A DNA stretch of 64,000 nt from Lobosporangium transversale (Eukaryota): the NCBI RefSeq assembly GCF_002105155.1, contig NW_019029019.1, positions 310,001 through 374,000 of the forward strand, given 5' to 3'. Positions 20,667 through 41,366 of the stretch are shown piece by piece. The notes under the pieces are model-generated. The model saw only the letters and a program-made list of their open reading frames with translations. It had not been told where the DNA came from and did no database searches. The first letter of the stretch is position 1. The number at the start of each line of letters is the position of its first letter. A program made the position numbers and the translations under genes.

Positions 20667-20784
20667 CATTATCCTCGTAGCCATGGTCCATATGTGTGTG
20701 ACCTCTTTTTATTCCTTCTGACCGAGAAAAAACTAAAAATAAAATAAATAAAATCTAGCGTTCGCTCTGATCTACTCTCTATCT
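20667..20784. repeat. DIRS left inverted terminal repeat
   Basis: 20689-20784 is the exact reverse complement of 24726-24821 (96 bp). 20667-20696 is complementary to the first part of the ICR. Confidence 0.93.
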
Positions 20785-20829
20785 TCTTTTTTCTCGCTCA
20801 GGAACACATCCAGCGTATTGAAGTTCCAA

Positions 20830-21753: not shown

Positions 21754-24595
21754 GTGGCCGTTTACAGATTTACAGAGAAGCATGGGCTCTCATAACCGAC
21801 AACGAATGGGTCAAGTCGGTCGTCTCCGAGGGATTCAAAATCCCTTTCCACAAACGGCCACCGATATCCAGTTCAACAGCGTACCAAGCTCGAGTAGCAG
21901 CGGAGGAAGAGAAGGCGATCGATCAAGAGGTAATCGCACTCTTAGCCAAAAGAGCAATAGAGGTCGCTTCGGGCCCTGGTTTCAAGAGCCGAATATTCAC
22001 TATCCCCAAGAAAACCGGGGACATTCGTCCAGTCTTAAATCTAAGACCGTTGAATGCCTACGTCTCAGAGCGGCACTTCAAAATGGAGACGATGACGACA
22101 GTATGCGCAATGTTACAGAAGAACGACTTTATGACAAGCATCGACCTATCAGACGCATTTCTTCACGTACTAATCCATCCAGATTATCGTCATTATCTAC
22201 AGTTCCAATGGAAGAACCGGAAATTTCAATTCCGTACACTTCCCTTCGGGCTCTCACTCTCTCCGCTAGTGTTCACCAAAGTTCTCAAGCCTTTCCTCAA
22301 ATGGGCACGACGACGAGGAATTCGCATATCAGCGTACCTAGACGATTTGATAATCCTAGCCAAGAACAAAGAACAATCAATCCAGTTCACTCAACTAGTG
22401 CAAGACAAGTTGGCAGCGCTAGGATTCCTCATCAAGGAAGCCAAGTCTACGTTGATCCCGTCACAGAAAATAGACCATTTAGGTTTCACCATCAACTCCC
22501 GGGATATGACTGTCACAGTTCCGAAATCCAAAGTCAGGGACATACGGCGCGAGGCAGGAAAGCTACTACGAAAAGGCGCCACTTCTTTAAGGGAACTTTC
22601 TTCGTTCGTCGGGAAAGCAATGGCAACATCTATGGCAGTGTTCCCAGCGCGATTCATGACACGGAATCTGCTTCACCTCAAGAACACAGCACTAAAAGCC
22701 AAGGGAGCTTCTTGGTCGGACACGGTCACCCTCACGGAACCAGCCAAGGAGAACCTTCAATGGTGGAAGGAGCAATTGACGTCATGGAATGGTCTGTCAT
22801 GGATTCAACAACAGACACAAATGGACATATACACGGATGCATCGGACACCGGATGGGGGATCGTGATCAACAATCAAACATGGAGTGGCAAATGGACTCC
22901 ACAAGAGAAAGACCACCACATCAACTGGAAGGAACTACAGACAGTTCTTCGAGCTGTTCAACTACCAATAACACAGGGCAAAATGATCAACATCATATGC
23001 GACAACACGACGACGATTGCACACATCAACAGGTTCGGAGGGACGAGGTCTCCGGAACTAATGAGACTAGCGGACACGTTATGGCGTCACTGCCTAGCAA
23101 CGGGGACTCGACTTCGGACGACATACATCCCATCTGCATTCAACCCAGCGGATGCACCGTCACGGCGAATGATATCGCAATTGGAATGGAGGATCAGTCG
23201 CCCATTCTTTCAACAACTGGAACACCAATGGGGGCCACATCAGGTGGACCTATTTGCGTCGGCACAGAACAAACAGCTACCGACATTTGTCTCATGGAAA
23301 TTCCATCCAGATGCTCTGAAGATAGACGCCCTTCAACACAACTGGACAGAGATGGGCAACCTTTACATTTGCCCCCCATGGAATCTTCTATCAATCATCT
23401 TGGAGAGGATACAGACCCAGAAACTGACAGCAACAATAATAACCCCATGGTGGCCGAGTGCAATATGGTTCCCAACCATCAAGGAGATGGCAGTAGCACC
23501 ACCAATCCCGATCCCTCGGGAAGCAGTCCTACCAGCCGTCGGAAGCGCAAGCGATCTCCTCAGCAAGAATCCACTCTGGTCATTGACAGCATGGAGAATA
23601 AGAGGCGACGTAAAGATCTAGATGCAGGACTCTCACCATCCGCTATCACTCTACTAGATTCAGCAGGTGCCAACAGCAAAACACGTCGACAATATCTGCC
23701 AACTCAAGAGGCTTTCGCAGTATGGGCTCAACAAGAAGGCTTCGACCCTAGTACGCCAAATGCAATTGCTGTAGTTAACTATTTATGCCATGCGCGGATT
23801 ATCTATTCTTGGAGTAGGAATACCACTCTTAACAAAAAATCAGCCATCTTAAAGCTTTACGACGACACATCCGTGATCACAGGCAATATCTACTTTCAGC
23901 GGTTCATGGCAGCAATGAAAAGTACTGGCGTATTTCAAATGGAGCACGTATCCGCACTCGACATTTCACCCATCCTTTCATACTTCCGCATGGAGGACAA
24001 TGTGGATCTTGATATGCCTAAGCTCTCTCGCAAGCTCTGCTGGCTCTTAGGCGTTTGTGCGTTTCTCCGGCCAGATGATATCGGTTGCATCGATGTGTCA
24101 AAGTCAGAGACCAATGAAAAGGGTCTTCTCCTTACCATAGTCTTCCCTAAGGAGCGACGCGATGGGCAGCGCATCATAAAGTCGATCTTCGTAGGTAGAC
24201 ACCCTAACGACAAGAAAATTTGCCCAGTCGAGGCCTATACAGAATACACCAGACGGATAGCGGACACACCTCTCGAAATCGAGCACCACAAAGATCAGGA
24301 TTATAAATTCAATCCTCTTATGCGCTTTGTGAAAGACAAGTCTAAAGTCCTTAGGGTCAGTACCATAGGCACTTTTATGAATGAAATCACACGTCGAATT
24401 CCAAATCTTCCGTCGAAACGACCTCCTCCAAAGCCACGCGCTATAGGATCAACCTTGGCAGCCATCGCTGGCGTATCAACCCAAGATATCATGGTTCAAG
24501 GGAATTGGTCGTCTGACAAGGTTTTCAACAAACACTACCGTGTTTCCCGCAAAACCAATTCAAATTTGACGACGTCTGTTTTTGGTTCGCTCTGA
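20840..24595 (+). CDS. DIRS tyrosine recombinase ORF (YR domain in the last ~330 codons; long upstream overlap with gag and pol; true start uncertain)
   Basis: FLRPDDI (catalytic R), ICPVEAY, PKPRAIGST (HxxR position, H replaced) and GNWSS..FNKHY (W and catalytic Y). Confidence 0.85.
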   Translation: MTLLIQLYTLSRASWLHSPAGLKLSRLALNPVDRTPTWFQKNQLTKLHLTTPFSSTTQQWTGKIFSNINLETVQTILHMQQKWLKRCSLLPKTQPKPILHPNRHSLTGPTLPLTTVPWTKQSHAINHDWQTLQDHLINLPRKCFPTKLTLRSHKRVYSSHRQCVNILHTLHSKCQATGRTLFTKRTKFQSPRTQLIHQLSLLQTSLKPANWQRVFVRLLTRQDNGRTTGGLKTGVSLVQILTDPLLILANLIHRVKLRPPTIKMTMILFLGEAKIQGEGDEAEAEATKPLNPTRQVRHRLQASSRWPFTDLQRSMGSHNRQRMGQVGRLRGIQNPFPQTATDIQFNSVPSSSSSGGREGDRSRGNRTLSQKSNRGRFGPWFQEPNIHYPQENRGHSSSLKSKTVECLRLRAALQNGDDDDSMRNVTEERLYDKHRPIRRISSRTNPSRLSSLSTVPMEEPEISIPYTSLRALTLSASVHQSSQAFPQMGTTTRNSHISVPRRFDNPSQEQRTINPVHSTSARQVGSARIPHQGSQVYVDPVTENRPFRFHHQLPGYDCHSSEIQSQGHTARGRKATTKRRHFFKGTFFVRRESNGNIYGSVPSAIHDTESASPQEHSTKSQGSFLVGHGHPHGTSQGEPSMVEGAIDVMEWSVMDSTTDTNGHIHGCIGHRMGDRDQQSNMEWQMDSTRERPPHQLEGTTDSSSSCSTTNNTGQNDQHHMRQHDDDCTHQQVRRDEVSGTNETSGHVMASLPSNGDSTSDDIHPICIQPSGCTVTANDIAIGMEDQSPILSTTGTPMGATSGGPICVGTEQTATDICLMEIPSRCSEDRRPSTQLDRDGQPLHLPPMESSINHLGEDTDPETDSNNNNPMVAECNMVPNHQGDGSSTTNPDPSGSSPTSRRKRKRSPQQESTLVIDSMENKRRRKDLDAGLSPSAITLLDSAGANSKTRRQYLPTQEAFAVWAQQEGFDPSTPNAIAVVNYLCHARIIYSWSRNTTLNKKSAILKLYDDTSVITGNIYFQRFMAAMKSTGVFQMEHVSALDISPILSYFRMEDNVDLDMPKLSRKLCWLLGVCAFLRPDDIGCIDVSKSETNEKGLLLTIVFPKERRDGQRIIKSIFVGRHPNDKKICPVEAYTEYTRRIADTPLEIEHHKDQDYKFNPLMRFVKDKSKVLRVSTIGTFMNEITRRIPNLPSKRPPPKPRAIGSTLAAIAGVSTQDIMVQGNWSSDKVFNKHYRVSRKTNSNLTTSVFGSL
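21639..23621 (+). CDS. DIRS pol ORF: reverse transcriptase + RNase H + DNA N6-adenine methyltransferase-like domain
   Basis: Frame is open from 21639 (after TGA at 21636). Motifs PAVGGRL..W, SIDLSDAF, LPFGL, AYLDD, YTDAS, HINWKEL, CDNTT, NPADAPSR, VDLFAS and YICPPW. Confidence 0.92.
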   Translation, partial: FFFWARPKSKERGTRPRPRLPNPSIQPDKSGTDCRPAVGGRLQIYREAWALITDNEWVKSVVSEGFKIPFHKRPPISSSTAYQARVAAEEEKAIDQEVIALLAKRAIEVASGPGFKSRIFTIPKKTGDIRPVLNLRPLNAYVSERHFKMETMTTVCAMLQKNDFMTSIDLSDAFLHVLIHPDYRHYLQFQWKNRKFQFRTLPFGLSLSPLVFTKVLKPFLKWARRRGIRISAYLDDLIILAKNKEQSIQFTQLVQDKLAALGFLIKEAKSTLIPSQKIDHLGFTINSRDMTVTVPKSKVRDIRREAGKLLRKGATSLRELSSFVGKAMATSMAVFPARFMTRNLLHLKNTALKAKGASWSDTVTLTEPAKENLQWWKEQLTSWNGLSWIQQQTQMDIYTDASDTGWGIVINNQTWSGKWTPQEKDHHINWKELQTVLRAVQLPITQGKMINIICDNTTTIAHINRFGGTRSPELMRLADTLWRHCLATGTRLRTTYIPSAFNPADAPSRRMISQLEWRISRPFFQQLEHQWGPHQVDLFASAQNKQLPTFVSWKFHPDALKIDALQHNWTEMGNLYICPPWNLLSIILERIQTQKLTATIITPWWPSAIWFPTIKEMAVAPPIPIPREAVLPAVGSASDLLSKNPLWSLTAWRIRGDVKI

Positions 24596-24598
24596 AGT

Positions 24599-24689
24599 CA
24601 CATATGGACCATGGCTACGAGGATAATGATCTGGAAGTGCTACAAAGGACGCACTATCCTCATTATCAGAGTAGCCATGGGACATATGT
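24599..24689. repeat. DIRS internal complementary region (ICR)
   Basis: cacatatggaccatggctacgaggat-AATG-atctggaagtgctac...gggacatatgt is the reverse complement of right end + CATT + left end, i.e. the circle-junction sequence. Confidence 0.92.
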
Positions 24690-24725
24690 CCCTCCCACAC
24701 CTCCCTTTTCTTTTCACTCGTTACT

Positions 24726-24879
24726 AGATAGAGAGTAGATCAGAGCGAACGCTAGATTTTATTTATTTTATTTTTAGTTTTTTCTCGGTCAGAAGGAATA
24801 AAAAGAGGTCACACACATATGTCCCATGGCTACTCTGATAATGAGGATAGTGCGTCCTTTGTAGCACTTCCAGATCATT
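24726..24879. repeat. DIRS right inverted terminal repeat with right-hand extension
   Basis: Reverse complement of the left ITR, followed by an extension ending ...cacttccagatcatt that is complementary to the second part of the ICR. Confidence 0.93.
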
Positions 24880-25409
24880 GTTGTAAAATTTAGGGGCAGA
24901 TGCGGTAGGAGATTTAGGTCGTTTTGGTGGATTGTGAAGCCGGTCACTTCCAGCTGCAGATAGATAAAATAATTCTAACACAATAAAAAGAACACACACA
25001 CTACTCAAAGACTGAACGAGAACAGTCAGTACTCAAATGGCTCTTGTGTAAAAGAACAAGGAGCCAGATTTTCCTGAGCTGTTGCTCGTTAAATAGTTGT
25101 TGGCAAACCCTCTCCACGTGACTAAAACTAAAACCAACAATATGGTCGATGGGCTCTTTCGATCATCGTTTATGAGCCTGCTCCGTCTGTGCCCTCCAAA
25201 AAGAGAAAAGAGAAAAAAAGGGGATTTGAAGGAATATGGCTGTTAACTCAACCCTTTCATACATGCCCTATCACAAATAACTCAGTCTTCTGGCTCTCCT
25301 ATTACATAAGACCATTGCCATGAAGGATCGTAATACCGAGATTTTACTAGATCAACATTTTTTTTTTTTAAAGTTGCATAAACTGCAGAGAAAAATTTTT
25401 TTTGTTTCT

Positions 25410-25986: not shown

Positions 25987-27255
25987 ATGTCTCAAGGCCA
26001 TTTTCACCACTATATACCACGCTTCATGTAGGAGAGCTTCTCCCAACTGAAGTCTTCAAGCATTTCCCACCAAATACCTTAGGTGGCTTCACACAAGAGC
26101 CTTTTTAAAAGGCCCAGTGGAGAGCAAGGGAAATAGTGGAGGGGCTAGCGTGGGAAGCAGCAGGAAAGACAGCGGAAGGAAAAGCAGTGGGACCAGCAAA
26201 AGAGATAGCAGAGAAGGCGATAAAGAAGGCGGTCATGAAACCAAGGAGCAAAATCCCATCAGTGATTTCCCTATTTATATGCCCTATTTATGTGTATCGA
26301 GCATTGAAGAAAACAATCGCACAGAGTGGCGTTAGCAGAGTGTATGATCTTCAGAACATATATCGAGATATTGCTGCAGTTGATAGTATGGGGTTTGAGA
26401 GGGAGCTTGCCGAATCCGAGTACACCTCTGCGACGTTCATTCATAAGATCCGACCTGGCGGAGAACTACTGCTGACGCGGACTCAACTAGCAGACTTCAA
26501 GAGGTTCTTAGCCATCATGATGTACAGGAGCGAGTGCCGGAGGAAATAGTATTACGAGTGTCGATTTGATATTATGACACTTCTATCGATTCGAAAACAC
26601 ATGTCCCAAAACAATATTGACAGAGTTCAAGACGTATGGTTCGAGAATCTCAAATGGATCATCAAGACCCCTCACGACGAAATCATTAAGGAGAGCTCAG
26701 CTATCGATCCGAAAGGCGTCAAGACTCCCATGGATACTATGTTTGCTTTGAGCAAATATAAAGGACCTATTCACGTTGCGGAACTTATGGACTATTATAA
26801 CTTAGTGTGGAACTACGTGTGTGTTTGGCAAGTGGAAGAAGACTCTAACTGACAAGTGCTTTGGTGCGTTCGAAGATGAGAATGCTATTCACTTCCACAA
26901 CTTCCATGTTGTGTCTCCGAAATATATGGTCATCCTTGTGAACTGTCTTTACATGTGGGACCTTATGAAGACCGTGGGTCTCCGGAAGCCGTGGTCTGGA
27001 GGCGAGCTCCATGCCAATCCAGTTGTCATCTATACGAAAAAGCCTATGAGAGGCGCGGAAGACTTTACTCCAACAGACGTGTTCAAATACAAAAGGATTG
27101 TCGTCCCAAAAGAGAAGGTATATCTCGGCGGCAGTTTCATTTTGGGTGGAGGTACATAACATACATGTACAGGTCCTTGAGATACTACGATAAGACTAAG
27201 GAATCTTTATATACTCACAAATTTGGTTGCCGTTTCATGAAGCGCGAAGTATTAG
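25987..27255 (+). pseudogene. DUF4238-family pseudogene
   Basis: ATG MSQGHFHHYIPRFM then TAG at codon 15. Collinear with 38083-39423 but carries several frameshifts and stops. Confidence 0.9.
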
Positions 27256-28533
27256 AATATGACGACATTTTATTTTATGTATTTTTATTTCCAATGCATC
27301 TTATCCTGATGGGTGCGGCTCCTACACTATGGCTAGCTCGATGTAATAACAGTTCCTGCTGAGAAGAAAGAACGAAAACATAAAAAGGCAACTATCTGTG
27401 TGGATCAATAATGGATGGAGGATGGAGGAAGAAAGTAGTCTGTGTAAGTCTTTGAGGAAAGGGATGTGCCAGAAGCTAGCACAATAATATTTGTAGGGTT
27501 TTGACAACGTCAACACCATTTACAGTGGACATTGGTGTTAAAGAACACATGTTTAGTGCTATTTTACTATACCAACCCCTGCTTGTGTAGAGGATGTGTT
27601 TGCCAAGTAATCAAAAAATAAGCGGAGCGATGTTTGGTTGCTTTGAGGCATAAACCAAACAATAGATACTGTCATATTTATCCTTCGATCTTTATCCACT
27701 GCTGGGATAAACTATTGTAGAGGGAGAATGGGTACAGAACATCATGAAAGAGTTCTTTGTCCAAATAATCATCGGATCAATCTCCTTGGTGATGAAAGAG
27801 GGCTCTTGCTGATTATCCCCCGAAAGGAAAAAAAAACATCAAGAAGTAGAAAGGATTTCCACAAACAGATTTGATATGGAAAAAATGCTAACGTGTACGT
27901 TCCTGCGTTTGCTTGTATTCAGGTGCTATACTTTGAAATGTGCTATTTTTTTCTTTGAGCCAAGGATATATTCTATTATATCTTTGATGTCTCTATCGCC
28001 TCGCTCACTCAGCTTTTCTGTCTTTTTCTCTGTACTTCATACGGAATCAGGACAATCATCCCTACACTTGCATCGATTCACATTCTTTTTTCAATTGCTT
28101 CCTCCATTACTTCTTCGAACCCATCAATCATTGTGACTGTTTTTGAAGACGCGTTTATTTTATTTGCGCCACTGAACTTGGAATTAGTTTGACATACGTT
28201 AAGGTAATGGTGATAGCAGATAGTCATTTGAGGAGAGAGGCGAGTGTAGAGGTGTTGGCGGCTTGGAGCTCTCCACTCTTACATTTGATATTGTGTGCAA
28301 TGTAAGCTAACCTGGGTTCTAAACACATTTAAGACCGGGCACTTAACTGGCGTGCACTTTCTCTATACCGACCTTGTTATAAAAGCGGTGCTCAGCTTTT
28401 ATTCCGATTTATGGTGCAGAGTATGGAACTACTCGATGGTGTTCTGTTATTAACCATTTCTTTCTTTTTTTTCTTTTCTTTAGAAAATCAAACCAAATAG
28501 AAAAAAGAATCCTCCGAGATCTTGTGCGTTTCG

Positions 28534-31500
28534 ATGAAGTTACTGTACGACACCCAAAAGTTACGAACTTCGCTTAACAAGGACGAGAAGGCTAAACGGG
28601 AAAGAGGCAAGATGGACACGTTTAAGAAAGATGGATATGAGTCTGTTAGCCTATACACCAAAAGGCTAATAGACATGTATAAATACGAATTTGGGATCAA
28701 AGCAGCAAAGGCGCTGTTTGGCAAGATTCCAGACGACTACAAGCTCTGTGATCTCAGACGTGTAAGGAATAAAAACTTTCGAGATTCCGCCGACAAGGGG
28801 TTAAATGAAGACGATAGCGAGCTTAATGAAGACGATAACAAGCTAAATGAAGACGGTGGCGAGCTGAATGAAGGCGATGGCGGATTGAATGGAGAAGATG
28901 ACGAAGTAAATGGGGATAGTGAAGACGTTGACAAATCTAGTGCAGAGGATTGGATTTTTATTGGAGATGCAGAGATGTACAACCGCAACGACATTGTCGT
29001 AGCTGTAATCACTAAGAGCTTTGGCGATGAAACAGGCTCCAAGCGATACATCGGCTGCTTGAGTCACATTTTCAGGATCCCGCAAAGCAGATTGTGTCAA
29101 TACATTCTCACATTCAACGCGCAAATATCCCCTTCCCAGAATATTAAGGTACTGATGTGGACGATTGAAAACCTTACGTCCTACAAGCGTGTTGTGAAAA
29201 GTCTTTCCGATGGGGATGCGATGAGGTCGATACCAGAGCTGTTCTTGAAAGGCCCTATGACAGACGCTAGCCCCCTTACAGACGATACTATAGATATTCA
29301 AGATGGTGTGCCCGAGTCGATGAACCCAATGCAGAAAATCGCGATATCAAGAGCAATCCAGGAGGATGGGGACAAGGTGGTACTGATTCAAGGCCCTCCT
29401 GGATGTGGTAAATCGACGGTGATCGCCGAAATAATCCATTTGCTTACCACCCATGACCGAGGTAACGCGGGGATGCGAGTCCTGGCGTGCGCACAGACGA
29501 ACGTTGCTGTGGTAGATCTTGCATATAAGTATGTTACCACTAAAAAACCTAAGGACAAGTTTGCATGTGTTATGGATATGAAGCTACCCAAGATCACCGA
29601 TAGCCGCAAGAGAGTCGTGCTCGAGCCATTTACAATTATCGCTCGATATCATCAAGTTGTCAATGCTGTGTTGCATACCGTCATACGCGTCTTTGGGCGT
29701 ACCCCCACTGCGTGTCACGGGAGCACGACAAAGGATGGAGTTAAGAATATTGTGGCCGCCGATTTCAATGCGTGTGTGGAAAGTGGTTTAATCGAACTAC
29801 TGCCTCAGAGAGTTCGCACTCTTCTGATGTTTACGCAGGCCGCGATAGGCGGCTCTACGCTGCCGCCTGACGCTTTGGCCCGGATGAAGCGCTTTGTTTC
29901 AGGAATGCGCAACGAACTTAAGCTCTTTTTTGAACCCATCGAGCTCGAGTCGTTGCTCGAACTTTGCAGTGTTAGTCAGCATACAGGCTCGTCGGCACGC
30001 CCTACACCTATACCTATTTACGAATGGGTGAAGCAAGCCCTCCTTGACGCAGCGTCTGTTGTATTTTGCACGATTAATATTGGGATATCGTTGACTTATA
30101 ATAGACGCTTGGACAGTCTAGCGTATATCGTTGTCGATGAGGCAGGACAGGCACTAGAGCCAGATGTGGCTGCACTAATGTGTGTTGATTCATGCTTTCG
30201 TCGCCTTATCTTGGTTGGTGACCCAAAGCAGCTCCCAGGATATTGCGCATCCAACCGAGGCAAGCGCGAGATGATGGACCGCAGCCTCATGGAGCGTCTC
30301 CAGACATACCGACTGTGCCATTCTACACTTCTCGATGTACAATACCGCATGCACCAAGACATCTGTGCTTTTGTGTCCCGAACCTTTTACGATAACAGAT
30401 TGACCTCCGACAAATCTATCCATAACAGGAGCCCTGTTACAGCACTACCAGCAGTTATGCACATTATGTTTAGGGGGTCTCAGGCGAGCCAGTCAAAAAT
30501 CACGAAAACGAGTGTAGTGAATATCGATGAGGCTAGATACATTGTCGCCCATGTAATCAACGTGCTGTTGCCGTCCAGACGGAAGCAAGCCTCTTCAGCC
30601 AAGCCCGTGACTAAACCTGAGTCTGGATCAACATCTTATGCTGACATGGCGGCGAAACTCCCGCAAAAGATAGAGGCGCGACAACCTGCAGAAGCCGCCA
30701 CGGTCTCTATTGGAATCATATGCATTTACAAACCACAAGCCAACGTTATACAATACCTTGTCGACAAGGCACTGCCCCAAAAATTATCTGAGTTCAATAT
30801 AGTCGTTAAAACCATAGATTCATTCCAGGGGCAGGAGTGCGACGTTATCTATGTGGCGCTTACAAGAACTAACAAAATCAACGCTTTTATGGTCAATGCT
30901 AATCGCGTTAACGTGGCAATTTCGAGAGCTCGACACCACCTAATTGTAGTGGGAGATGCAAATCTTTCGCTGACAGGCAAACAAGGCGCCTCCTTATCAT
31001 CCTACTGGCATAAGCTGTGTGTGGGCAGGAGATCCATGGTTATCGAACGAAAGCACATGAAGAACGTACCTCTGTACGAAGGACCTGAACACGTTGCTGC
31101 TATGAAGGCTGTGGCAATGCCAGTAACACCGACCACAGTCAAAGAGATCATAGCTAAGGCATTGGCTGCCACAACTCCTATTTGGGCCATTCATTATGAG
31201 AGGCTCAAGGTAGACCCGGAAATCCCGCAAGGAATCCATATACTCGAATATGTTGTGCAAGCGCTGGCTAGTGGGGACTTTGACGCGGGAGATGGCGGTA
31301 GAACAACTAGACCTTTATTCCGCAAACAAAAAGGAGCATCCCTGTTCTTCGTTACCTCGGTGTGTGATACAGTGTGCCTTGCGTGGACCGTGGTGGTGCA
31401 CGGGCACCGCCAGGCCATTGAGCTTCTTGGCATCGGAGACAAAACATTCATCGAGAAGAAGGTCTGGCCGCTGCTCCGCCACGACATCAAAGAGCAACCA

Positions 31501-34257
31501 GAATGGAAGCTCTCTGCGTCTATGAGTCTGTGGTCGTCTGGTATAAGCGTAGACCTCTCCAAGGATATGCCAAAAAGTACGTCGTTGCTCTATGTGCCTG
31601 CAGATGTAGATGTTCCTGCCGCTGACTTATTGGCGGATGTACCAGAAAATGCACATCTTTTGAACGATCGCGACCATACTAAGCTCATGGCGTCCATGAG
31701 GTCCAGACCCATTATGATTCTTGGAGGTGGGGGTACTGGCAAGACGGAGTGTATGCTGGATATGATCGAGCAGCAACTGGACATGGATACAGACTATGAC
31801 AACATGCAGCTTTATTTGGGAGCAACAGATTCGTTAGCCAACTGGTCGTCGGTGAGGCTACTAAAACGGAAGAGTATAACGGAACAGGGCTTTAGGATGG
31901 TATCGTTCACCAGTCTTCCATCTCTACTCACAAAGCTCTACATGTCGAGTAGCGCCATACGCGGGAGGCTCTTTGTGGATCGTAACGTATTTAGATCTGA
32001 ATATATGGATGCCATGCCTGCAATGGTCCGCAGTATTGGCGCCGATGAGCTCTACGATACTATCCTCGCACGCATGGATATAGAGGCACACAACAGTACT
32101 AGGTTCCTTAGGTCAGAGCACAAGACAGCGCACAAGGTGTACAAATCGATCAAAGCATCGCGTGGCCATATCGATGCTTACGATCTTCACGCACTTGTCA
32201 AACGAGACCCGCAACGATTAGTGGCTATGGCATCGAAGATAGCACGCATCTACTTAGATGAGGTCCAAGATATATCATGGACAATGTGGTCCGTAATCGA
32301 GATAATGCTCTCTGCACGCACCTCGAGCGTGGTGTGTGCTGGTGATTTTACACAGCGACTTACACCAGGGATTTCAGTCAATGGCATAAAGACGCTTATC
32401 TATAAACACCTCCCCAAGAGTATGGAGACCATTAGATTTAAGACAAATTATCGATCGGACCCTAACATTATATCGCTCGCAAACCGTATCCAATCGTACA
32501 CCCACATGAGAGAACACGCAATGGAACCGTCTCTCTATTCTAAGGAAAGCAGCAACTCCGTGACACTGGTAGAGATACAGGACATCGAGCATGAAAATGT
32601 AGCCGATGTGTTGCGCTATATCGGAGTACCATCCAACAACTACAGAGCTGCGATCGTCACATCGTCGTCATGGGCACATCGGCTTCGTGAGACTTTGGGT
32701 AAATCTCACAATGTCTTTAGTGCTTACGAATGCAAGGGTCTCGAGTTCGACCTTGTTGTGTGTTGGGATCTCTTCAACCCAAGCATGGGTGTAAAAACGT
32801 CGACTTTAAGGCATAACATGGGAGCTTCCACCTTAGATAAGGGTAATATTGAGGAAGACGAGAACTTTGAGATATACTTGAACCACCTCTACGTAACCGT
32901 TACAAGGGCACGCAAGCATCTTATAGTGGTCGTCCCACCGTGTGATAGAACCAGTATTATGATCAGGGCACTCGGGATTAACGATGTCGTCCATTACAGC
33001 GAGGTCCAGGAGCGTGGACCTCTGCCTGAAATTATCATTCCAATAGATGAGCTCAGTGTGTCTGACGATCTAAGAATGGCGATTGTAATGAGAGAGAGAG
33101 GCTTGCTTCAGCAGGCCCTCAACGTCTTTGAGCAGAATGGCGACGCTGCACAAGCAGGGTTTACAAGAGCTCTAATCCACCGAAAAGAGCACAGGCTTCG
33201 CGGGGAAGATCACGAGATCCAGCTTTGTATTTCTGAGTGTTACGGAGTGATCGAGGAATTGCACCAGTCGACAGAGAGTGTTCTCAAAATCGAGGATGTA
33301 AAGCTATTCCTTGCCCAGGCACTGGTCGCTGATAAGCAGTATGCTGAAGCCTGTTTGCTTTACGAAGACCTGGAGATGGAAGATGAACTGGTCGCGTGCC
33401 TAATCGAGGCAGTCGAATCAAAGTCTGAAGATGTAGCGCAGCTACAAGACCTTGTATCCGATCAAGCTGTAGCTATATGGGAGCATTTCAAGGACAACAA
33501 TAGATACGCAAGATTTGTTATTGCGTTAATGCTGATATTCAAATCTTCGCCTGTAGATATAGTCCAGTCGATGCTCTCGCACATTCCATCCAAGACAGGG
33601 CTTATTATGATGCATAACTCCCTGGTAGAGGCCAATAAAAGCGTATCTCCCATATGGGAAGTATTCCGAAGAAGAAAGTCGCTGCAGATTGGCCCCGGGT
33701 CAGAAGAGTCGGAGGAACTGACATTTTTAGAATGGAGCTCATTGCGACGCCTCGATGGCCGGCACGCTAACAAAGACTTGGGTTACATTATGTCTGCTCA
33801 TTGCTTGCCAAACTATCAGTCGTTAATGGCATGTCTGTTTGTTGGGCCTAGAAACAACATGACCACCGACATCTTGTCACTCCATATCCAATCGGGTGCT
33901 ATGCTAAAGGTGTGTCGATCGCTGGAAGTGCCTTTGAAGCATGTGGCAATGAAGATGAGCGAACTCTCGTGCCCCCTCCCAGATTTTATGACACTTCATT
34001 CCCAAATAAGCGAAGAAGAGTCAAGGATGCACCTGCTTGCCGAGGCGTACAAGATGCATAAGCTCAAGATGAGGGGTAGCGAGCATCAACTCACGCTCTT
34101 TAGATGGTGTGCAAAGATGAGTGGGGGTACGGATATTATCGAGATGATCTGCGCCGTGCTTAGAGAAGACAAAGAGATGTTGCTCGGCATTTACATTCCA
34201 GGAAACACTGCAAACGCAACACAGAAAGCACTACTTCGTCTGTTACACGAGAGGTGA
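28534..34257 (+). CDS. Dual-helicase gene copy 4 (~1907 aa from the first ATG)
   Basis: Same motifs. The ORF-track start at 28522 is TTG and there is an in-frame TAG at 28498-28500. The first ATG is 28534 (MKLLYDTQK, equivalent to MDLLYDTQK in copies 2 and 3). Confidence 0.88.
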   Translation: MKLLYDTQKLRTSLNKDEKAKRERGKMDTFKKDGYESVSLYTKRLIDMYKYEFGIKAAKALFGKIPDDYKLCDLRRVRNKNFRDSADKGLNEDDSELNEDDNKLNEDGGELNEGDGGLNGEDDEVNGDSEDVDKSSAEDWIFIGDAEMYNRNDIVVAVITKSFGDETGSKRYIGCLSHIFRIPQSRLCQYILTFNAQISPSQNIKVLMWTIENLTSYKRVVKSLSDGDAMRSIPELFLKGPMTDASPLTDDTIDIQDGVPESMNPMQKIAISRAIQEDGDKVVLIQGPPGCGKSTVIAEIIHLLTTHDRGNAGMRVLACAQTNVAVVDLAYKYVTTKKPKDKFACVMDMKLPKITDSRKRVVLEPFTIIARYHQVVNAVLHTVIRVFGRTPTACHGSTTKDGVKNIVAADFNACVESGLIELLPQRVRTLLMFTQAAIGGSTLPPDALARMKRFVSGMRNELKLFFEPIELESLLELCSVSQHTGSSARPTPIPIYEWVKQALLDAASVVFCTINIGISLTYNRRLDSLAYIVVDEAGQALEPDVAALMCVDSCFRRLILVGDPKQLPGYCASNRGKREMMDRSLMERLQTYRLCHSTLLDVQYRMHQDICAFVSRTFYDNRLTSDKSIHNRSPVTALPAVMHIMFRGSQASQSKITKTSVVNIDEARYIVAHVINVLLPSRRKQASSAKPVTKPESGSTSYADMAAKLPQKIEARQPAEAATVSIGIICIYKPQANVIQYLVDKALPQKLSEFNIVVKTIDSFQGQECDVIYVALTRTNKINAFMVNANRVNVAISRARHHLIVVGDANLSLTGKQGASLSSYWHKLCVGRRSMVIERKHMKNVPLYEGPEHVAAMKAVAMPVTPTTVKEIIAKALAATTPIWAIHYERLKVDPEIPQGIHILEYVVQALASGDFDAGDGGRTTRPLFRKQKGASLFFVTSVCDTVCLAWTVVVHGHRQAIELLGIGDKTFIEKKVWPLLRHDIKEQPEWKLSASMSLWSSGISVDLSKDMPKSTSLLYVPADVDVPAADLLADVPENAHLLNDRDHTKLMASMRSRPIMILGGGGTGKTECMLDMIEQQLDMDTDYDNMQLYLGATDSLANWSSVRLLKRKSITEQGFRMVSFTSLPSLLTKLYMSSSAIRGRLFVDRNVFRSEYMDAMPAMVRSIGADELYDTILARMDIEAHNSTRFLRSEHKTAHKVYKSIKASRGHIDAYDLHALVKRDPQRLVAMASKIARIYLDEVQDISWTMWSVIEIMLSARTSSVVCAGDFTQRLTPGISVNGIKTLIYKHLPKSMETIRFKTNYRSDPNIISLANRIQSYTHMREHAMEPSLYSKESSNSVTLVEIQDIEHENVADVLRYIGVPSNNYRAAIVTSSSWAHRLRETLGKSHNVFSAYECKGLEFDLVVCWDLFNPSMGVKTSTLRHNMGASTLDKGNIEEDENFEIYLNHLYVTVTRARKHLIVVVPPCDRTSIMIRALGINDVVHYSEVQERGPLPEIIIPIDELSVSDDLRMAIVMRERGLLQQALNVFEQNGDAAQAGFTRALIHRKEHRLRGEDHEIQLCISECYGVIEELHQSTESVLKIEDVKLFLAQALVADKQYAEACLLYEDLEMEDELVACLIEAVESKSEDVAQLQDLVSDQAVAIWEHFKDNNRYARFVIALMLIFKSSPVDIVQSMLSHIPSKTGLIMMHNSLVEANKSVSPIWEVFRRRKSLQIGPGSEESEELTFLEWSSLRRLDGRHANKDLGYIMSAHCLPNYQSLMACLFVGPRNNMTTDILSLHIQSGAMLKVCRSLEVPLKHVAMKMSELSCPLPDFMTLHSQISEEESRMHLLAEAYKMHKLKMRGSEHQLTLFRWCAKMSGGTDIIEMICAVLREDKEMLLGIYIPGNTANATQKALLRLLHER

Positions 34258-34800
34258 CCACAGGTGCGCTGGGTTAGGCTTATCTGGCCGTAGACCTATC
34301 CAGTATTAAATATCTTAAGTGATTTACATCGTTTTAAAATAAAACACTCTGATTCTCCCTTCTCCCTGGTATATTATGAAATGTGGGCTTACGAATGTTT
34401 CGAGTTCTTTTATTTTTTTTTTTTATTTTTTAATGAAGCCTGCTATCTATCTGGTTTCGAATAGAAGGATGCGTTGAATGTTGTCTTCTAGTGAAATATT
34501 ATGTCTTTGAATAGGAGATAGAAGATTGCGAAAGTCTTTGATGGGAAAGGATGTGCCAGGGAATAACACGATAATATTCTGTAGAGCTTCAACAACATCA
34601 GCCAGCACTTACGATATAACCAGAACCAGAATTGATGTTTAAAGTACACATGTTTAATGCTATTTACTCTACCAACTCCTTGTATATAAGATGAACTGGT
34701 TAAGTAACCAAAAAAAAAAAATAAGCTCTGTCAATTGCTGGGGCTGGGACAAACTGCTGCTGAGGAGATCGTCTCTCGCCCTTATTTCTCATTTTCCATG

Positions 34801-35284
34801 GGGGCTCTAGCTGACTATCTCCCGAAAAAATAAAAATAAATAGTAGAAGGGGTTTCAGTTTGTTATATATGCTTGTAAGCGTTTCATGTTTTGCTTGTGT
34901 GATACTCGAAGCAAGTAGACAGGAGTGGAAAAAAGGCTTAAATACACACTGCTGTGCTTAGAAATGTGGGTATTTATTACTTCGCCAATTTTTTTAAGAG
35001 ACAGCTTTGAGCCTATATAACCTAGGATATTTTTCTCTATACCCTCGCTTCTCCCATTACCCCACCTGCTCATCTCTTCTGGATTGTTTTTTGTTTCTTC
35101 ATACGGAACCAAAATAACCATTCCTGCACTTGCACCAATCCATATCCAACACAAGAAACTTCAGTAGTTACTTCAATTTCAAAAAGTAAACAGCTCATAT
35201 CAAGCATGATCCGGTTCATTGATAAACTCGGTTCTTTTCATACTCACACGCAAAAAAAAATAAAATAAATCCCGCTTTTGTTAG
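34801..35284 (+). promoter_or_regulatory. Conserved promoter/5'UTR block of the 3CxxC genes (also ~40080-40637 and ~42125-42986; derivative upstream of the helicases)
   Basis: Shared GGCTCT..TATC(C/T)CCGAA, AAATGTGGG and GA(G/C/A)CCTATA(T/A)AA TATA-like elements, plus a probable 5'UTR intron (GTAA...TACTCAC-polyA-TTAG|ATG). Confidence 0.6.
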
Positions 35285-36067
35285 ATGGATCCTACACTTT
35301 TACCTGACCCAGCTTCTCGTTCCGGAATTGGGTCATTTTACAGCTGGCTCTTAAACCAAAAAAGATATGACATCAACCGTTTGGCGATGCAAGACTATCC
35401 TACATGGGCAAAACGAGTGGTTCATGCTGAACGCAAGCGATACAAAGACAAAGGAACAGATAGACCAACAAAAGCTGATAAAAAAAAAGTTCTGGATTTC
35501 GGTGAAGGAGTTGGCTCACAATCGCCACAACCAAACGATAATCAGCAAGGGTCAGTTGATAGTAGTCAGCAGCCGCCCACAGAACTGGAAGAGGAAAAGA
35601 AAAAAGAGAAAGGGCCAGGTCAAGGGGAATATGATGCTGAATACCTTCATATGCATGTTGCGGAGAAAGCAACATACGATATCATCTATGATAAAAACCT
35701 TCCCAGGCATACTAGGCCGTACCGTTTACAGAACTTCTGGGGACACTTTGTCTGTAAAACAGAGGAATGCGAGGAAAAAGAATGGATATCAGCCATCATC
35801 GCCAGTCGCCTGGTTTTTTCCAGGTCCGATAATTCCTACAAGGTCATACTTCATGCTCAGAAGTGCAGACAATGCGAACGCTATGCCAAACCTATTGTGG
35901 ATCCGGAGGCCTATGCTCAGCGGGTGGTCTTTGTTTTGGACTTGTGGCTGGGCCTTAGAGAAAGGATAGAGTCCACTGAATCTGGACTCAAAACCAGGGG
36001 TCCTCATGATATCAATCGCTGCCATGGATGCGCGGTAGGCGAGTGTAAAAATGCACTAGAGGAGTGA
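35285..36067 (+). CDS. zf-3CxxC (RTP-family-like) zinc-binding protein, copy 1 (260 aa)
   Basis: GHFVCKTEEC..EWIS, HAQKCRQC...KP and PHDINRCHGCAVGEC give the three-CxxC + His pattern of zf-3CxxC. Confidence 0.88.
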   Translation: MDPTLLPDPASRSGIGSFYSWLLNQKRYDINRLAMQDYPTWAKRVVHAERKRYKDKGTDRPTKADKKKVLDFGEGVGSQSPQPNDNQQGSVDSSQQPPTELEEEKKKEKGPGQGEYDAEYLHMHVAEKATYDIIYDKNLPRHTRPYRLQNFWGHFVCKTEECEEKEWISAIIASRLVFSRSDNSYKVILHAQKCRQCERYAKPIVDPEAYAQRVVFVLDLWLGLRERIESTESGLKTRGPHDINRCHGCAVGECKNALEE

Positions 36068-38082
36068 AGGACTTATCTTTGTCATACAATAGCTCTGGTA
36101 TTAACAGATACGAGAATTAAATAAAATAATAAAAGATGAAAATGAAAACATATTCTAGAACTCTAAGTATCCTCAAGTTGCCTTCAATAGATATTAGACA
36201 CCAATATGTCTCTCCTCAGTTCGTTTGTCACCTCTCCTCTTCATTATAAAGGTAGGTTAAACTGCTTGTAATTGAATTAAAAGTAACCATGAGAGACTGC
36301 TTTATTGTATAACAATCATTGCTTCTTCCTTCTTCCTTCTTCCTTTACTTTATGACATAGAATATGAAGATGTTCGATGATGCACCTGTCATTAACCATT
36401 TTTTTACTTTTTTTTAGAGGATCAGAACCATGGTGAGAAATGCGAATCCCAGGAGCAGTTATTTTCACCAGTACATCAAAGCCCAAAGATCTTTTTTCAC
36501 CTTTGAACTTGATTAATATATGTTTTAGTGATGGAGCATGTATGATTTATACCCTGATACAAAAGATGTTTTTTTTTTGGCAAATACATCGGTTCACATG
36601 GCGAAAACCATTGATCTCAAGAGCCAAAAAGTAAAACCCGAGAACCTGATGCAAGGACAGAATTCTGTGCCGCCTTCTGCCTAAATGAGACTTCATTGGT
36701 TACACCAGCAATTTTGATATCGCTTTTGAAGGCGAGGAATAGTTGGATTCGAGATTTTAAGGGCTGCGGCTCCGATACATGGAGTTCTGCTGCTTCTCGG
36801 GCACCAGTAGTTCCAAGAAGGGCTTTTACCGAGTGGATGGAACAGGTGATTATTGACTATACTCTACCTATTTCAAGTATTTGTAGCAATTTCTTCATTT
36901 ACCATTCCCAATCTTTGCCCCAGCATCCGCAGCTCGCCCCTTCTCATTCTGATGTGCTCTCGTCATCGGTGGTAGAGTCATCAGAAATGCTTACTACTGA
37001 GTCATCATCGCCCAGTACCAATATATCCCGTTGCCAGAATGGTAAGAGCGAGTCATCATACTCTACTCCAAAGAACTTGAACAAGTAGCAGAAGTGACTT
37101 GAAGGCCGGATCAAAGCACAGTGAGTAGAGGGCTCAATCAATCTAAGGTGATAGGATTCAGCGAGGCGTTGTATTTCATTATGTTGAGGCTGTCAATCTT
37201 TATGACGGTTACGACGCCGCTATTGGCGGATCTTAGCCTGAGTCATGCTGCGCCGCAAAGGATGCGCTTATTTTTCGGGTCTACGAGCAGAGTCTGCGCC
37301 TCCAAAATGTATTAAGAGCAACATCTATATCTGAAGAGAGAGCGAACACATACTACTCCAACAACCCAGGATGATCGTAATATCATGTCGATACTTGTTT
37401 TTGGGATTTCTGATGTTCAGAGAACGCATCGAACCTTTGGTCAAAACTTTATACAACCACATTGATGCAGATGATTGTTTGCACGGGTTGTTAGGCTTTT
37501 AGGCATGTTTCATCCTGTCATCCTGCTGTACCACCTTCAAATTATGCGCATATGTGCATACACATTTGACATTTTAAAATTAATCGGATATTCAAGGAAT
37601 TGTTCAAGTATTTACCGAGTAAGGCATTGAAGGAGAAGGATAAATGTATCATATGGTAGTACATCAAGTATAGCAATGCCAACACAAACATAATAAAGAG
37701 TGTTCGTAAGCAGTGCTGTGCTGGATTGCAATAACACTGAATATGTTGTGTGCACCCTGTGATCTTGTGGAACCAAATTGTTCATCTTATTTATGCCATT
37801 AATGCATTTGAAGAGCTGCATTGCCAAGAGTAAGGAAATCACAGAGCCTGAGTTTTGTAGAAATGTATCATGTTGATACTTTGGCAATGGTCTAATGACT
37901 ATTACATTGAAACCTTAAACATCAATGTATAAAGGCAAAGAACAGCTGTGTGAAATATTTATGGGACTCAAAATTGTATAAAGGGCCTATCATTTCTCTC
38001 AACTTCAAAACTAATTACCCATACACCTATTCCATTCGATAATTAAGTAAAAGCCATCTTACTTCATCTGTTTGTCGCCATT

Positions 38083-39423
38083 ATGTCTCAAGATCAGTTC
38101 CATCACTATATACCACGCTTCATATTGAAGAGCTTCTCTGATAACTTCCAACTGAAACCTTCAAGTATTTTCTCACCAAATGCCTCAGGTAACTTCACAG
38201 AAGTGCCTTTTTCAAAAGGGCCAGTGGGGAGCAAGGGAAATAGTGGAGGGGATAGCGTGGGAAGCAACAGGAAAGGTAACAGAAGGAAAAGCAGTGGGAT
38301 CAACAAAAGAGATAGCAGAGAAGGCGATAAAGAAGGCGGTCATGAAGCCAAGGAGCAAAATCCTATTATTGATTTTCCTATTTATGTGTATCGAGCGCTG
38401 GAGAAAACAATCGCACAGAGCGACGTTAGCAGAGTGTATGGTCTTCAGAACATGTACCAGGACATTGCTGAAGTCGATAGTATGAGGTTTGAGAAGGAGC
38501 TCGCCAAGTTGGAATGCACCTCTGCGACGTTCATTCATAAGATCCGATCTGGCGAAGAACTACTGTTGACGCGGACTCAACTAGCAGACTTCAAGAGGTT
38601 CCTAGCCATCATGACATACAGGAGTGAGTGCCGAAGGGAACAGTATTACGAGTGTCGATTTGATATTATGACACTTCTATCGATTCGAAAACACATGTCC
38701 CAAAACAATATTGACAGAGTTCAAGACGTATGGTTCGAGAATCTCAAATGGATCATCAAGACCCCTCACGACGAAATCATTAAGGAGAGCTCAGCTCTCG
38801 ATCCGAAAGGCGTCAAGACTCCCATGGATACTATGTTTGCTTTGAGCAAATATAAAGGACCTATTCACGTTGCAGAACTTATGGACTATTATAACTTAGT
38901 GTGCAACTACGTGTGTGTCTGGCAAGCGGAAGAAGGGTCTGAATTTATCCTAACCGACAAGTGCTTTGGTGCGTTCGAAGGTGACATGGGTGTATGCTTC
39001 CACAACTTCTATGTTGTGTCGCCGAAATATGTCGTCGTTCTTGTGAACCGTCTTTACATGTGGGACCTTATGAAGACCACGGGTCTCCGGAAGTCGTGGT
39101 TTGGGGATGAGCTCCATGCCAATCCAGATGTTATCTATACGAAAAAGCCTATGAGAGGTGCGGAAGACTTTACTCCAACAGACGTGTTCAAATACAAAAG
39201 GATTGTTGTCCCAAAAGAGAAAGTGTATCTCTGTAACAGCATCCTTTTGGATGCTAGTCCCAAGTATATAACATACAAGTCCGATATCTCCATGTACAGA
39301 TCTTTAAGATACTACGACAAAACTAAGGAAGATCTGTTCACCTTCAAATATGGTTACCATGTCCTAAAGCGCGAAGTATTAGCTAATCTCAAGGCAAAGG
39401 TGAATAGAACACATTGCTCCTAG
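38083..39423 (+). CDS. DUF4238-family protein, copy 1 (446 aa)
   Basis: N-terminal QFHHYIPRFILKSF, QNMY, EKELAKLE, EFILTD and VSPKY match the DUF4238 signature (HHYVPxFxL..F / NxY / E..L..LE / FITSD / PxSP). Confidence 0.82.
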   Translation: MSQDQFHHYIPRFILKSFSDNFQLKPSSIFSPNASGNFTEVPFSKGPVGSKGNSGGDSVGSNRKGNRRKSSGINKRDSREGDKEGGHEAKEQNPIIDFPIYVYRALEKTIAQSDVSRVYGLQNMYQDIAEVDSMRFEKELAKLECTSATFIHKIRSGEELLLTRTQLADFKRFLAIMTYRSECRREQYYECRFDIMTLLSIRKHMSQNNIDRVQDVWFENLKWIIKTPHDEIIKESSALDPKGVKTPMDTMFALSKYKGPIHVAELMDYYNLVCNYVCVWQAEEGSEFILTDKCFGAFEGDMGVCFHNFYVVSPKYVVVLVNRLYMWDLMKTTGLRKSWFGDELHANPDVIYTKKPMRGAEDFTPTDVFKYKRIVVPKEKVYLCNSILLDASPKYITYKSDISMYRSLRYYDKTKEDLFTFKYGYHVLKREVLANLKAKVNRTHCS

Positions 39424-40586
39424 GCCCTTCTCGAAGGACTTTTCTAAGACATTACATTTTTTCCTCCTCTCCTCATAAACAAAGGTTGTAGTTGTTGAAA
39501 ACAGCTTGGTGAAAATAAAATAATAGGCCTTTCAGCCATTGCTAAAAAAGAACCAGTACCAAAGTTTAGGAGAGGGTCAATTAAGTTATAGAGTCAGTTT
39601 TTTTTTTTTTTAGTGTTTCTTCCTGAATGGTACAGCTTTGCAGCGTGGGCCAACTTCAGAACAACTTCGAGATCATCAGGTTCCTCTGCATTCCTTTAGT
39701 GAAATTTGGCCTGTCGCCATCAAGCATTCCCTTTGATATTTATCCGAGGTTAACCATTCATTTCTGTAAGTCAGTGACTATGGTGATAAGTATATTAGGC
39801 GCTACAATAGATATTCTCTTAAGAGAGCAAGAAAACGTAAAATATGGTCACATATATGAGCCTACAACTAATAGAGGATAGAAGAAAAGAAAAGACTACA
39901 AGAGTCCCAGATGGGTAGCGCAGTGCCAGACAGTGCCACTTCTCTCGTATTGAGGAACAGTTGATTAAATAAAAAGCGAAACAATGTCAGGTAAACAGTT
40001 GTCGACCATTGCTTAATGTCATACAAAACACCAGTAGATGGAATAAACAAGGTGATTGGCACAAAATAGGAGGAAAGGCCCAGGCTCTACTTTTTATCCC
40101 CCGAAAAAATACAAGCTGCTATCTCACCACATGCATACAGGTTGTGTTCTAATGTCCTTATTTAATAAACACACCAACACTAAGATGGCTCCAAGCAAAA
40201 AATCTAAGCACGGAAATGGGTTTAAATACACACAGATGCTGTGCTTGTTTGTTTGTATATGCCAAAGTAATCAAGGTGCTGTAGCACTTGAAAATGTGGG
40301 CTTTTCTTGCTTCGCCAAATCTTATTTTTTTACAGATGACTTTTGACCCTATAAAAACCTGCTACATGTAACTTGTTATATCCCTGTCGCCCCTTTCATC
40401 TCGCTCCCTTCATTTCTTTAGCTTGTTCTCTATTCTTCATACGGGGTCAGGGGATCATCACCACACTTACATCGATACACATTCAACACAAGGCACGTCA
40501 ACAACTACTTCGATTTCTAAAAGTAAGCAGCCCACATCAAACACAGACCCTGTTCATCGATCAAAGTCAGCTCTTTCAGTACTCAC

Positions 40587-40622
<36 letters not shown>

Positions 40623-40637
40623 ACCCTCTTATATTAG

Positions 40638-41366
40638 ATGAATCCCGCGAATTTGCCAGCCCAAGCTAATCGCACCAGAATTGGTTCGTTTTACAGCAGG
40701 GTCTGGAGGCTAGTTGACTTAGATGACTTATTGGAGCAAGACTATCCAACCTGGGCAGGAAATGTGATCCGAGCAGAACGCAATCGACGCATACATATGG
40801 GAACAGAACCGCCAACAAATTTTGAAAGAGTTTTAATCCTGGATTTCGCTGAAGAGCTCACTAATGATTTATTCGAACCAGGTGATAACCAACCGGAACA
40901 GGCAGAGTTTGATGGTGAATATCTTCATACGCACGTTGCTGCTGTAGCATCATACGACATCGTCTATAATAATACTCTTTGTAGGAATGATAAAAAGCTT
41001 TCCAAAGCAAACAAAAATGTCAAGGGGCGTTTCGTCTGCGGAACTGAGAGATGCGGGAACCGTGAATGGGAGTCATCTGTTATCGCCACCAACCTGAGGT
41101 TTTCTAAGGTTGGCAACTCCTACAAGGCCACGCTTCATGCCCAGCAGTGCAATCGATGCGAAAAATATGCAGAGCCTATTGTTGAGGTGGAAACCTATGT
41201 TGAACGGGTAGTCTACATGTTGGACCTATGGATGGGTGTTAGAGAAAGGGAGAAGCCCTCTGAAACGAATAGAAGAGCCAGACGTCCTCATGATAGGTCT
41301 CGCTGCCATGGCTGTAAAGTAGGCGAGTGCCCAAATGTAACAAGAGGAAGGAGGAGGAGGTCATGA
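40638..41366 (+). CDS. zf-3CxxC protein, copy 2 (242 aa)
   Basis: GRFVCGTERC..EWESS, QQCNRC and PHDRSRCHGCKVGEC; paralog of 35285. Confidence 0.88.
   Translation: MNPANLPAQANRTRIGSFYSRVWRLVDLDDLLEQDYPTWAGNVIRAERNRRIHMGTEPPTNFERVLILDFAEELTNDLFEPGDNQPEQAEFDGEYLHTHVAAVASYDIVYNNTLCRNDKKLSKANKNVKGRFVCGTERCGNREWESSVIATNLRFSKVGNSYKATLHAQQCNRCEKYAEPIVEVETYVERVVYMLDLWMGVREREKPSETNRRARRPHDRSRCHGCKVGECPNVTRGRRRRS

Follow-up and report, generated by a model that had tools for sequence, protein, structure and literature searches.

A relic of a 3CxxC promoter upstream of the helicase genes in a mixed gene array of Lobosporangium transversale

Genes for DUF4238 proteins, 3CxxC zinc-finger proteins and large helicases stand together in one array of the fungus Lobosporangium transversale. 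The array lies in a stretch of 64,000 nucleotides (NCBI RefSeq assembly GCF_002105155.1, contig NW_019029019.1, positions 310,001 to 374,000 of the forward strand), the whole of which is called the window here; position 1 is its first letter. From three similarities between spacers, an original prediction had concluded that a unit of the order DUF4238, 3CxxC and helicase was duplicated several times and lost different members in each copy. We propose instead that this order once existed and lost its 3CxxC gene once, and that the helicase was then multiplied by unequal crossing-over between the leftover 3CxxC upstream DNA and the intact upstream region of 3CxxC-1. This history is regarded as reasonably probable.

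The genes of the array, whose identities are borne out by Pfam, are the following.

8..2611, + strand: helicase 1, 3′ part only; the whole protein (P0228, 1912 aa) extends beyond the window edge
5617..11340, + strand: helicase 2, with Upf1-like plus UvrD-like superfamily 1 (SF1) domains; the start shared by its relatives is at 5668
13983..19664, + strand: helicase 3; its sister, ORZ07536, lies beyond the window
25987..27255, + strand: DUF4238 pseudogene, frameshifted and truncated about 13 codons short of the end
28534..34257, + strand: helicase 4
35285..36067, + strand: 3CxxC-1 (PF13695)
38083..39423, + strand: DUF4238-1, intact
40638..41366, + strand: 3CxxC-2 (PF13695)
42987..44297, + strand: 3CxxC-3, with an internal Gln-rich repeat
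49664..50986, + strand: DUF4238-2, intact

The window thus holds four helicases, three 3CxxC genes, and two intact and one dead DUF4238 gene. The order on the common strand is helicase 1 (partial), helicase 2, helicase 3, a DIRS-like retroelement, the DUF4238 pseudogene and helicase 4, followed by 3CxxC-1, DUF4238-1, 3CxxC-2, 3CxxC-3 and DUF4238-2.

A 3CxxC promoter relic upstream of helicases 2, 3 and 4

Upstream of helicases 2, 3 and 4, the DNA runs collinear with that upstream of the 3CxxC genes. The similarity extends in several blocks over about 700 bp and reaches the core promoter and the 5′ leader. The relic of this promoter is the main shared block of the array and was overlooked by the original prediction.

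5134..5243, + strand: before helicase 2, relic of the core promoter and 5′ leader of a 3CxxC gene; the TATA box is deleted just upstream
13499..13608: the same relic before helicase 3
27976..28085, + strand: relic before helicase 4 (z score 21)
34950..35284, + strand: promoter of 3CxxC-1, with its TATA at 35012, and 5′ leader that likely contains an intron; both are homologous to the 3CxxC-2 and 3CxxC-3 counterparts
40277..40637, + strand: 3CxxC-2 promoter (TATA at 40348) and 5′ leader, from alignment
5509..5517, + strand: putative helicase-specific TATA-like motif, nearer to the helicase start; also at 13875 and 28377

The relic before helicase 2 matches the 3CxxC-2 promoter (5134-5243 against 40376-40484) at 83 of 112 positions, with a z score of about 20, and further collinear upstream blocks reach z scores of 12.9 against 3CxxC-1 and 5.2 against 3CxxC-2. 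The TATA motif is present in all three 3CxxC promoters and absent from all three relics. Between the relic and the 3CxxC promoters the identity is 66-74%, and these promoters are about as distant from each other. This indicates that the relic is old, while the helicase copies that carry it are young. In the database model of helicase 1, the initial peptide is encoded by the upstream block that is also found at helicases 2-4.

At each of helicases 2-4 the relic is followed, after about 285-290 bp, by a block designated r, which is shared with the 3′ flank of 3CxxC-1. The helicases are thus preceded by sequences that flank a 3CxxC gene on its two sides, in order and with no 3CxxC coding sequence between, and this is best read as the loss by deletion of a 3CxxC gene that stood before a helicase. 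A similarity between 5337-5379 and the 42 bases that directly follow the stop codon of 3CxxC-1 was considered and rejected; its score was reached by 33 of 1000 shuffles in the chosen range and by 85 of 500 in the unbiased comparison, which is not significant.

Shared blocks in the spacers

All three spacer matches of the original prediction are present in the sequence, one of them strong, one clear and one weak as it had been placed. The blocks concerned are the following.

4114..4198, + strand: block b, 93% identical to 12845-12929 and 34432-34516
4476..4609, + strand: block a running into block p1, helicase-2 copy, homologous to 39800-39929
5528..5616, + strand: block r before helicase 2, a pyrimidine tract plus AG, possibly an intron acceptor
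12845..13125, + strand: blocks b and p1 before helicase 3
27364..27473, + strand: block a after the DUF4238 pseudogene
28408..28512, + strand: block r before helicase 4, from alignment with the 3CxxC-1 flank
34432..34718, + strand: blocks b and p1 in the helicase 4 to 3CxxC-1 spacer, from alignment
36336..36418, + strand: copy of block r behind 3CxxC-1, not followed by a helicase (alignment and spacer profile search)
36744..36884, strand not assigned: decayed block, also present between 3CxxC-2 and 3CxxC-3 (41847-42001), z score 14, no Pfam match
39800..39930, + strand: block a in the DUF4238-1 to 3CxxC-2 spacer, from alignment

The strong match joins the spacer before helicase 3 to the one that leads from helicase 4 to 3CxxC-1; 12845-13125 and 34432-34718 are identical at 250 of 287 positions (87%, z score 111). 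The clear match concerns block r (5528-5604 against 36336-36415, 65 of 80 positions), with a z score of 18, or 13 when the poly-T tract is left out. The text quoted for it does start at 36359, as had been given, and its final TTAG ends at 36418 and not at 36430. That no helicase follows block r at 3CxxC-1 was confirmed, as neither tblastn nor a profile search of the spacers reading through stop codons detected a coding relic there. The profile search found no 3CxxC, DUF4238 or helicase coding relic in the spacers of the window. The alignment of block r at helicase 4 to the 3CxxC-1 flank extends about 30 bases beyond the AG; taken alone, this extension is not significant.

The weak match relates block a behind the pseudogene (27364-27473) to that between DUF4238-1 and 3CxxC-2 (39821-39930), with 71 of 113 positions identical (63%, z score 6.5). 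None of 1000 dinucleotide shuffles reached its score, and the pair was reported neither by whole-window nor by all-spacer blastn. Block a is stronger through its helicase-2 copy, which matches 39800-39929 at 98 of 137 positions (z score 22; 63 bits as against 37 bits for the best reversed-sequence control). Because this copy stands before helicase 2 without an adjoining DUF4238 gene, block a is better read as DNA from far upstream of a 3CxxC gene. DUF4238 directly precedes block a twice, in the DUF4238-1/3CxxC-2 and the pseudogene/helicase 4 spacers, and a second copy of the pseudogene-to-helicase join is present in three DNA sequencing runs. From these observations, DUF4238, 3CxxC, helicase was likely the ancestral order. 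No match to any DUF4238 flank was found for the unique stretch 4199-4416 or for the DNA upstream of the pseudogene.

Two side observations concern the spacers. The decayed block downstream of 3CxxC-1 and 3CxxC-2 spans 36744-37125 and 41847-42097 and possibly represents the remains of a minus-strand gene. The middle of the spacer between helicases 2 and 3 (12554-12649 and 12796-12844) resembles 47518-47611 and 48336-48383, 1.3-2.1 kb upstream of DUF4238-2.

Recombinant DNA upstream of helicases 2 and 3

Helicases 2 and 3 both have mosaic upstream DNA. It was compared at informative sites, that is, at positions where the helicase-4 upstream and the 3CxxC-1 upstream differ.

4750..4816, + strand: switch point upstream of helicase 2; 3CxxC-1-like at 39 of 45 informative sites to the left, helicase-4-like at 121 of 123 to the right
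13115..13181, + strand: switch point upstream of helicase 3; 3CxxC-1-like at 36 of 43 to the left, helicase-4-like at 121 of 123 to the right

The best split has a p value of 2e-29 for helicase 2 and 5e-27 for helicase 3, and none of 200 permutations reached either value. This places the crossover within some 65 bases. Helicase 4 has the relic on one side and the 3CxxC-1 upstream region on the other, as direct repeats separated by about 7.1 kb, and the switch pattern is the one expected if unequal crossing-over took place between two such sequences. The helicase-3 upstream and the helicase 4/3CxxC-1 spacer have in common a join that lacks 4199-4562. This join is derived, since in the helicase-4 and DUF4238-1/3CxxC-2 copies block a adjoins p1 without a gap. 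A derived deletion join together with a sharp recombination switch implies that the strong spacer match is young.

Ages of the paralogs

The synonymous divergence (dS) is 0.62-0.95 among the 3CxxC genes, 0.44 between DUF4238-1 and DUF4238-2 and 0.29-0.34 among the helicases, where conversion can have lowered the values of the DUF4238 and helicase pairs. The ages of the three families are thus discordant. The identity of the paralogs is a patchwork in which tracts of 98-100% adjoin tracts of 64-75%, which indicates gene conversion. The pseudogene at 26500-26830 and DUF4238-1 at 38600-38900 are 95-99% identical, a recent conversion tract. Both helicase motif sets (Walker A, Walker B and the later motifs) are complete in helicases 2, 3 and 4, and the ratio of nonsynonymous to synonymous divergence (dN/dS) is 0.10-0.53 in all 13 helicase windows; these genes have therefore been kept.

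A co-duplicated module should show shared non-coding blocks that link the three genes in order, which were found, and concordant ages of the three genes, which were not. Tandem intact and dead copies and unequal exchange or conversion, as in a birth-and-death family, occur within the same array.

Origin of the array

The part of the original prediction that stands is the past order DUF4238, 3CxxC, helicase, which is implied by two blocks that flank 3CxxC genes and lie in order before helicases 2-4; this order would be older than the helicase expansion. The steps that we propose are as follows. Older duplications would have produced the 3CxxC copies and their flanks. In one copy, the 3CxxC coding region between DUF4238 and a helicase would then have been deleted, which would leave the relic and the 3CxxC-1 upstream region as direct repeats on either side of one helicase. 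Crossing-over between these repeats would give spacers between helicases whose left part is 3CxxC-1-like and whose right part is helicase-4-like. Duplications of larger blocks, gene conversion, decay of a DUF4238 gene and insertion of the retroelement would have followed.

Several points weigh against this history. The triplet is a composite, in which DUF4238-3CxxC is taken from DUF4238-1/3CxxC-2 and 3CxxC-r from 3CxxC-1, and all three elements occur together at no single locus. For the 285 bp that separate block r from the relic (5244-5527), no homologue can be demonstrated. By simple unequal crossing-over, new helicases should arise between helicase 4 and 3CxxC-1; the pseudogene, however, is preceded by helicases 1-3, and further events such as block duplications are needed. 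Recent conversion (100% identity at about 5000-5300) could make the right-hand part seem shared, and block r at 3CxxC-1 may never have had a helicase after it. No helicase window has a dN/dS above 0.53, and so none gives a sign of diversifying (positive) selection.

In an alternative, the helicase, one long open frame, was inserted once directly behind block r in a copy of an older DUF4238-3CxxC unit and came to use that DNA, the block r of 3CxxC-1 being the site as it was before insertion. The downstream spacers of 3CxxC-1 and 3CxxC-2 share the decayed block and a marginal r-like match (reached by 4 of 300 shuffles), which suggests that the 3CxxC 3′ flank is part of an old unit without a helicase. 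Full-length relatives of the helicase in three species only, and the lack of significance of the stretch beyond the AG, also agree with an insertion. A clean insertion predicts, however, that the 3′ flank of the helicase continues into the DNA after block r of 3CxxC-1, which it does not. We consider an insertion unlikely; it would in any case pass through a state with 3CxxC and helicase as neighbours, as the proposed deletion of a 3CxxC gene also requires.

Copies beyond the window bear on the repeated duplication of an intact triplet. By their accessions, at least three more helicases, at least three more DUF4238 genes and at least one more 3CxxC gene lie on the same contig; the order of accessions gives no strand, and ORZ07528-31, 35 and 37 are not among the identified proteins. 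ORZ07536 is the sister of helicase 3, ORZ07534 carries the C-terminal lesion of the pseudogene, and ORZ07532 is closest to 3CxxC-1 (70%). The falling order from ORZ07536 to ORZ07532 repeats the window's helicase 3, pseudogene, helicase and 3CxxC-1, and three sister pairs in the same relative order point to a block duplicate. The consecutive accessions ORZ07532 (3CxxC) and ORZ07533 (helicase) were considered as an intact 3CxxC-to-helicase pair, and this was set aside, as the order of the sister pairs points the opposite way. The pair is very probably a helicase followed by a 3CxxC gene, a copy of helicase 4/3CxxC-1.

The duplication of an intact triplet with different losses in each copy is thus deprived of one argument, the consecutive ORZ07532 and ORZ07533. 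It retains that the order of the window can be parsed as degraded triplets, that the block a and block r matches are real, and that the helicase-helicase spacer at 12554-12649 resembles DNA far upstream of DUF4238-2 (47518-47611) with a z score of 9.5. It is contradicted by the discordant ages, by the single scar that helicases 2-4 share and by the strong spacer match, a young, derived recombinant join; moreover, the tested spacers lack the 3′ untranslated region of DUF4238, and no intact triplet occurs within the window. We therefore judge it improbable.

An origin of the matches from a dispersed repeat or from generic fungal promoter sequence, for which the poly-T tract in block r might speak, is very hard to maintain, since block r is still significant without the tract, the blocks are collinear and, within the window, tied to these genes only, and the contig depth over block r at 3CxxC-1 is near single-copy in all three DNA runs as against 26-33 times background in the bin of a real repeat nearby (about 25001-25143), which has many loose ends. 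Summed over this block r, the depth is 11.6, 11 and 141 as against 10, 9.7 and 124 in the adjacent bin; over the DNA upstream of the helicases it is about 4-8 times as high in the three runs, consistent with at least seven helicase copies. These depths, for which reads were counted from 80% likeness and the 3CxxC-3 and DUF4238-2 region was excluded, are approximate and give no exact copy number. The pattern shows that the matches follow the gene family and not a high-copy repeat.

A further run, guessed to be RNA, covers helicase, 3CxxC-like and DUF4238 DNA and has no depth in three spacer bins. One of its contigs covers 27295-28173, the relic promoter region, at a depth of 165; its contigs carry no strand or start.

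Linkage in related species

An intact triplet, for which the original prediction had suggested searching related species, was not found in those covered here. Full-length helicase relatives occur in three species only among 138 matches, namely Lobosporangium transversale, Mortierella sp. AM989 (71% identity) and Lunasporangiospora selenospora (42%), all of which are Mortierellaceae. The helicase (BGX27_002528), the 3CxxC match and both DUF4238 matches of Mortierella sp. AM989 lie on four separate contigs, and the helicase (BGW38_004837) and DUF4238 matches of Lunasporangiospora lie on different contigs. DUF4238 adjoins 3CxxC in none of 16 other assemblies with named matches to both, a result from 19 of 348 3CxxC matches looked up, with many assemblies fragmented, so that paralogs may be missed. 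The two genes have locus tags at least 600 apart in 14 of these assemblies, and in the other two the lengths of their contigs differ. A second 3CxxC cluster of Lobosporangium transversale, on a 1.35-Mb contig, has no DUF4238 or helicase match recorded there. None of 35 metagenome DUF4238 loci, most of them short or distant, carries a 3CxxC or helicase gene; no relative of the helicase was found in metagenome or viral contigs, and none of 3CxxC in viral contigs. Judged from these sequences, the linkage of the three genes looks lineage-specific.

Tandem DUF4238 genes without 3CxxC or helicase occur in Mortierellaceae-like metagenome contigs (three in L002:404-5102, two in L003). In another metagenome contig (L006:171-6264) a DUF4238 gene, 34% identical to the fungal one, stands beside KilA-N/GIY-YIG, HIRAN-like and GNAT genes; this mix suggests a large DNA virus.

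Neighbouring features

The 3′ spacer of helicase 3 is occupied, by insertion, by a retroelement.

20667..24879, + strand: DIRS-like retroelement with reverse transcriptase, RNase H, Dam-like domain and inverted termini

It seems complete: the reverse transcriptase match has an E value of 5e-25, the inverted termini are near-perfect, and an internal region is complementary to both ends. Its C-terminal stretch presumably resembles a tyrosine recombinase, going by a motif that we take to be characteristic; Pfam gave no match there.

Inside 3CxxC-3, a Gln-rich unit is tandemly expanded at 43221-43764, between the two conserved regions of the protein. An interrupted reading frame at 45951-46763 has a weak match to DUF3712 (E value 0.02). 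Minus-strand F-box, SH3 and SET-domain genes at 51723-63211 bound the array on the right.

Comparison with known systems

The cluster was not found in the literature searched, as judged from search results, with subscription papers and supplements outside the scope. PF14022 is above the curated cut-off in DUF4238-1 and DUF4238-2 (E value 1e-22), and the pseudogene has at least four internal frameshifts. A DUF4238 protein is reported to be a single-gene anti-phage system that confers strong T7 resistance on E. coli, with molecular function unknown (PMC9122126). The proteins of the array share the domain with that protein and differ from it in being fungal, multicopy and known here by sequence alone. 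No PADLOC model matched DUF4238, and its predicted structure (mean pLDDT 83) found no match among solved folds (best E value 0.57, best Z 3.4). In the RTP family of zf-3CxxC proteins, for example RTP4, the zinc finger is reported to bind viral RNA and lineage-specific expansions are described (PMC8172065). The 3CxxC proteins of the array are similar in their PF13695 zinc-binding domain with three Cys pairs. Unlike RTP proteins, they are fungal and carry the domain C-terminally, and their nearest Atlas clusters are unnamed fungal 3CxxC proteins.

The helicases resemble the Upf1/Sen1/IGHMBP2-like superfamily 1B (SF1B) helicases in their N-terminal AAA_11/AAA_12 core with intact motifs, and their best solved-structure matches are of the Sen1 and Upf1 types. 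They differ in a second, UvrD-like helicase fused behind this core. This fused double helicase is, as we presume, akin to the TRANK1-like double helicases. Pfam reported no SEN1 N-terminal, Upf1 zinc or kinase domain on the helicase. The best PADLOC match was MkoA of the Mokosh system (E value 5e-66), which covers the helicase part of the profile only; any Upf1-like domain might give it. MkoA combines a kinase domain with the helicase, whereas the helicases of the array have no kinase in Pfam.

Since each family has antiviral relatives, the cluster might serve RNA-directed defence, a possibility that we offer by analogy and tentatively. A fuller version is doubtful: the locus would be a fungal defence island, assembled in a single lineage, in which a DUF4238 of the anti-phage type stands with an RNA-binding zinc finger like RTP4 and with a double SF1 helicase, and in which the dead upstream DNA of one defence gene was put to use both in driving and in amplifying another. 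An antiviral role, if there is one, would be the first function assigned to DUF4238 and 3CxxC proteins of fungi and to this rare double helicase, and would make the locus a case of clustered defence genes in a fungus of an early-diverging lineage. Otherwise the array is local genome history of a single species.

Tandem multigene arrays that evolve by birth and death are shaped by unequal crossing-over and gene conversion. The array of Lobosporangium transversale is a lineage-specific array of this kind, with tandem paralogs, pseudogenes, conversion tracts, recombinant spacers, a block duplication, a retroelement insertion and a narrow lineage range. It differs from the usual ones in that three unrelated families are interleaved and the repeat behind the expansion is likely the dead upstream region of another family. 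The process belongs to a known kind; what informs most about it is the relic promoter as a likely substrate of crossing-over. The locus provides a worked case of the growth of a mixed array, in which the leftover upstream DNA of a deleted gene was likely the repeat that amplified its neighbour.

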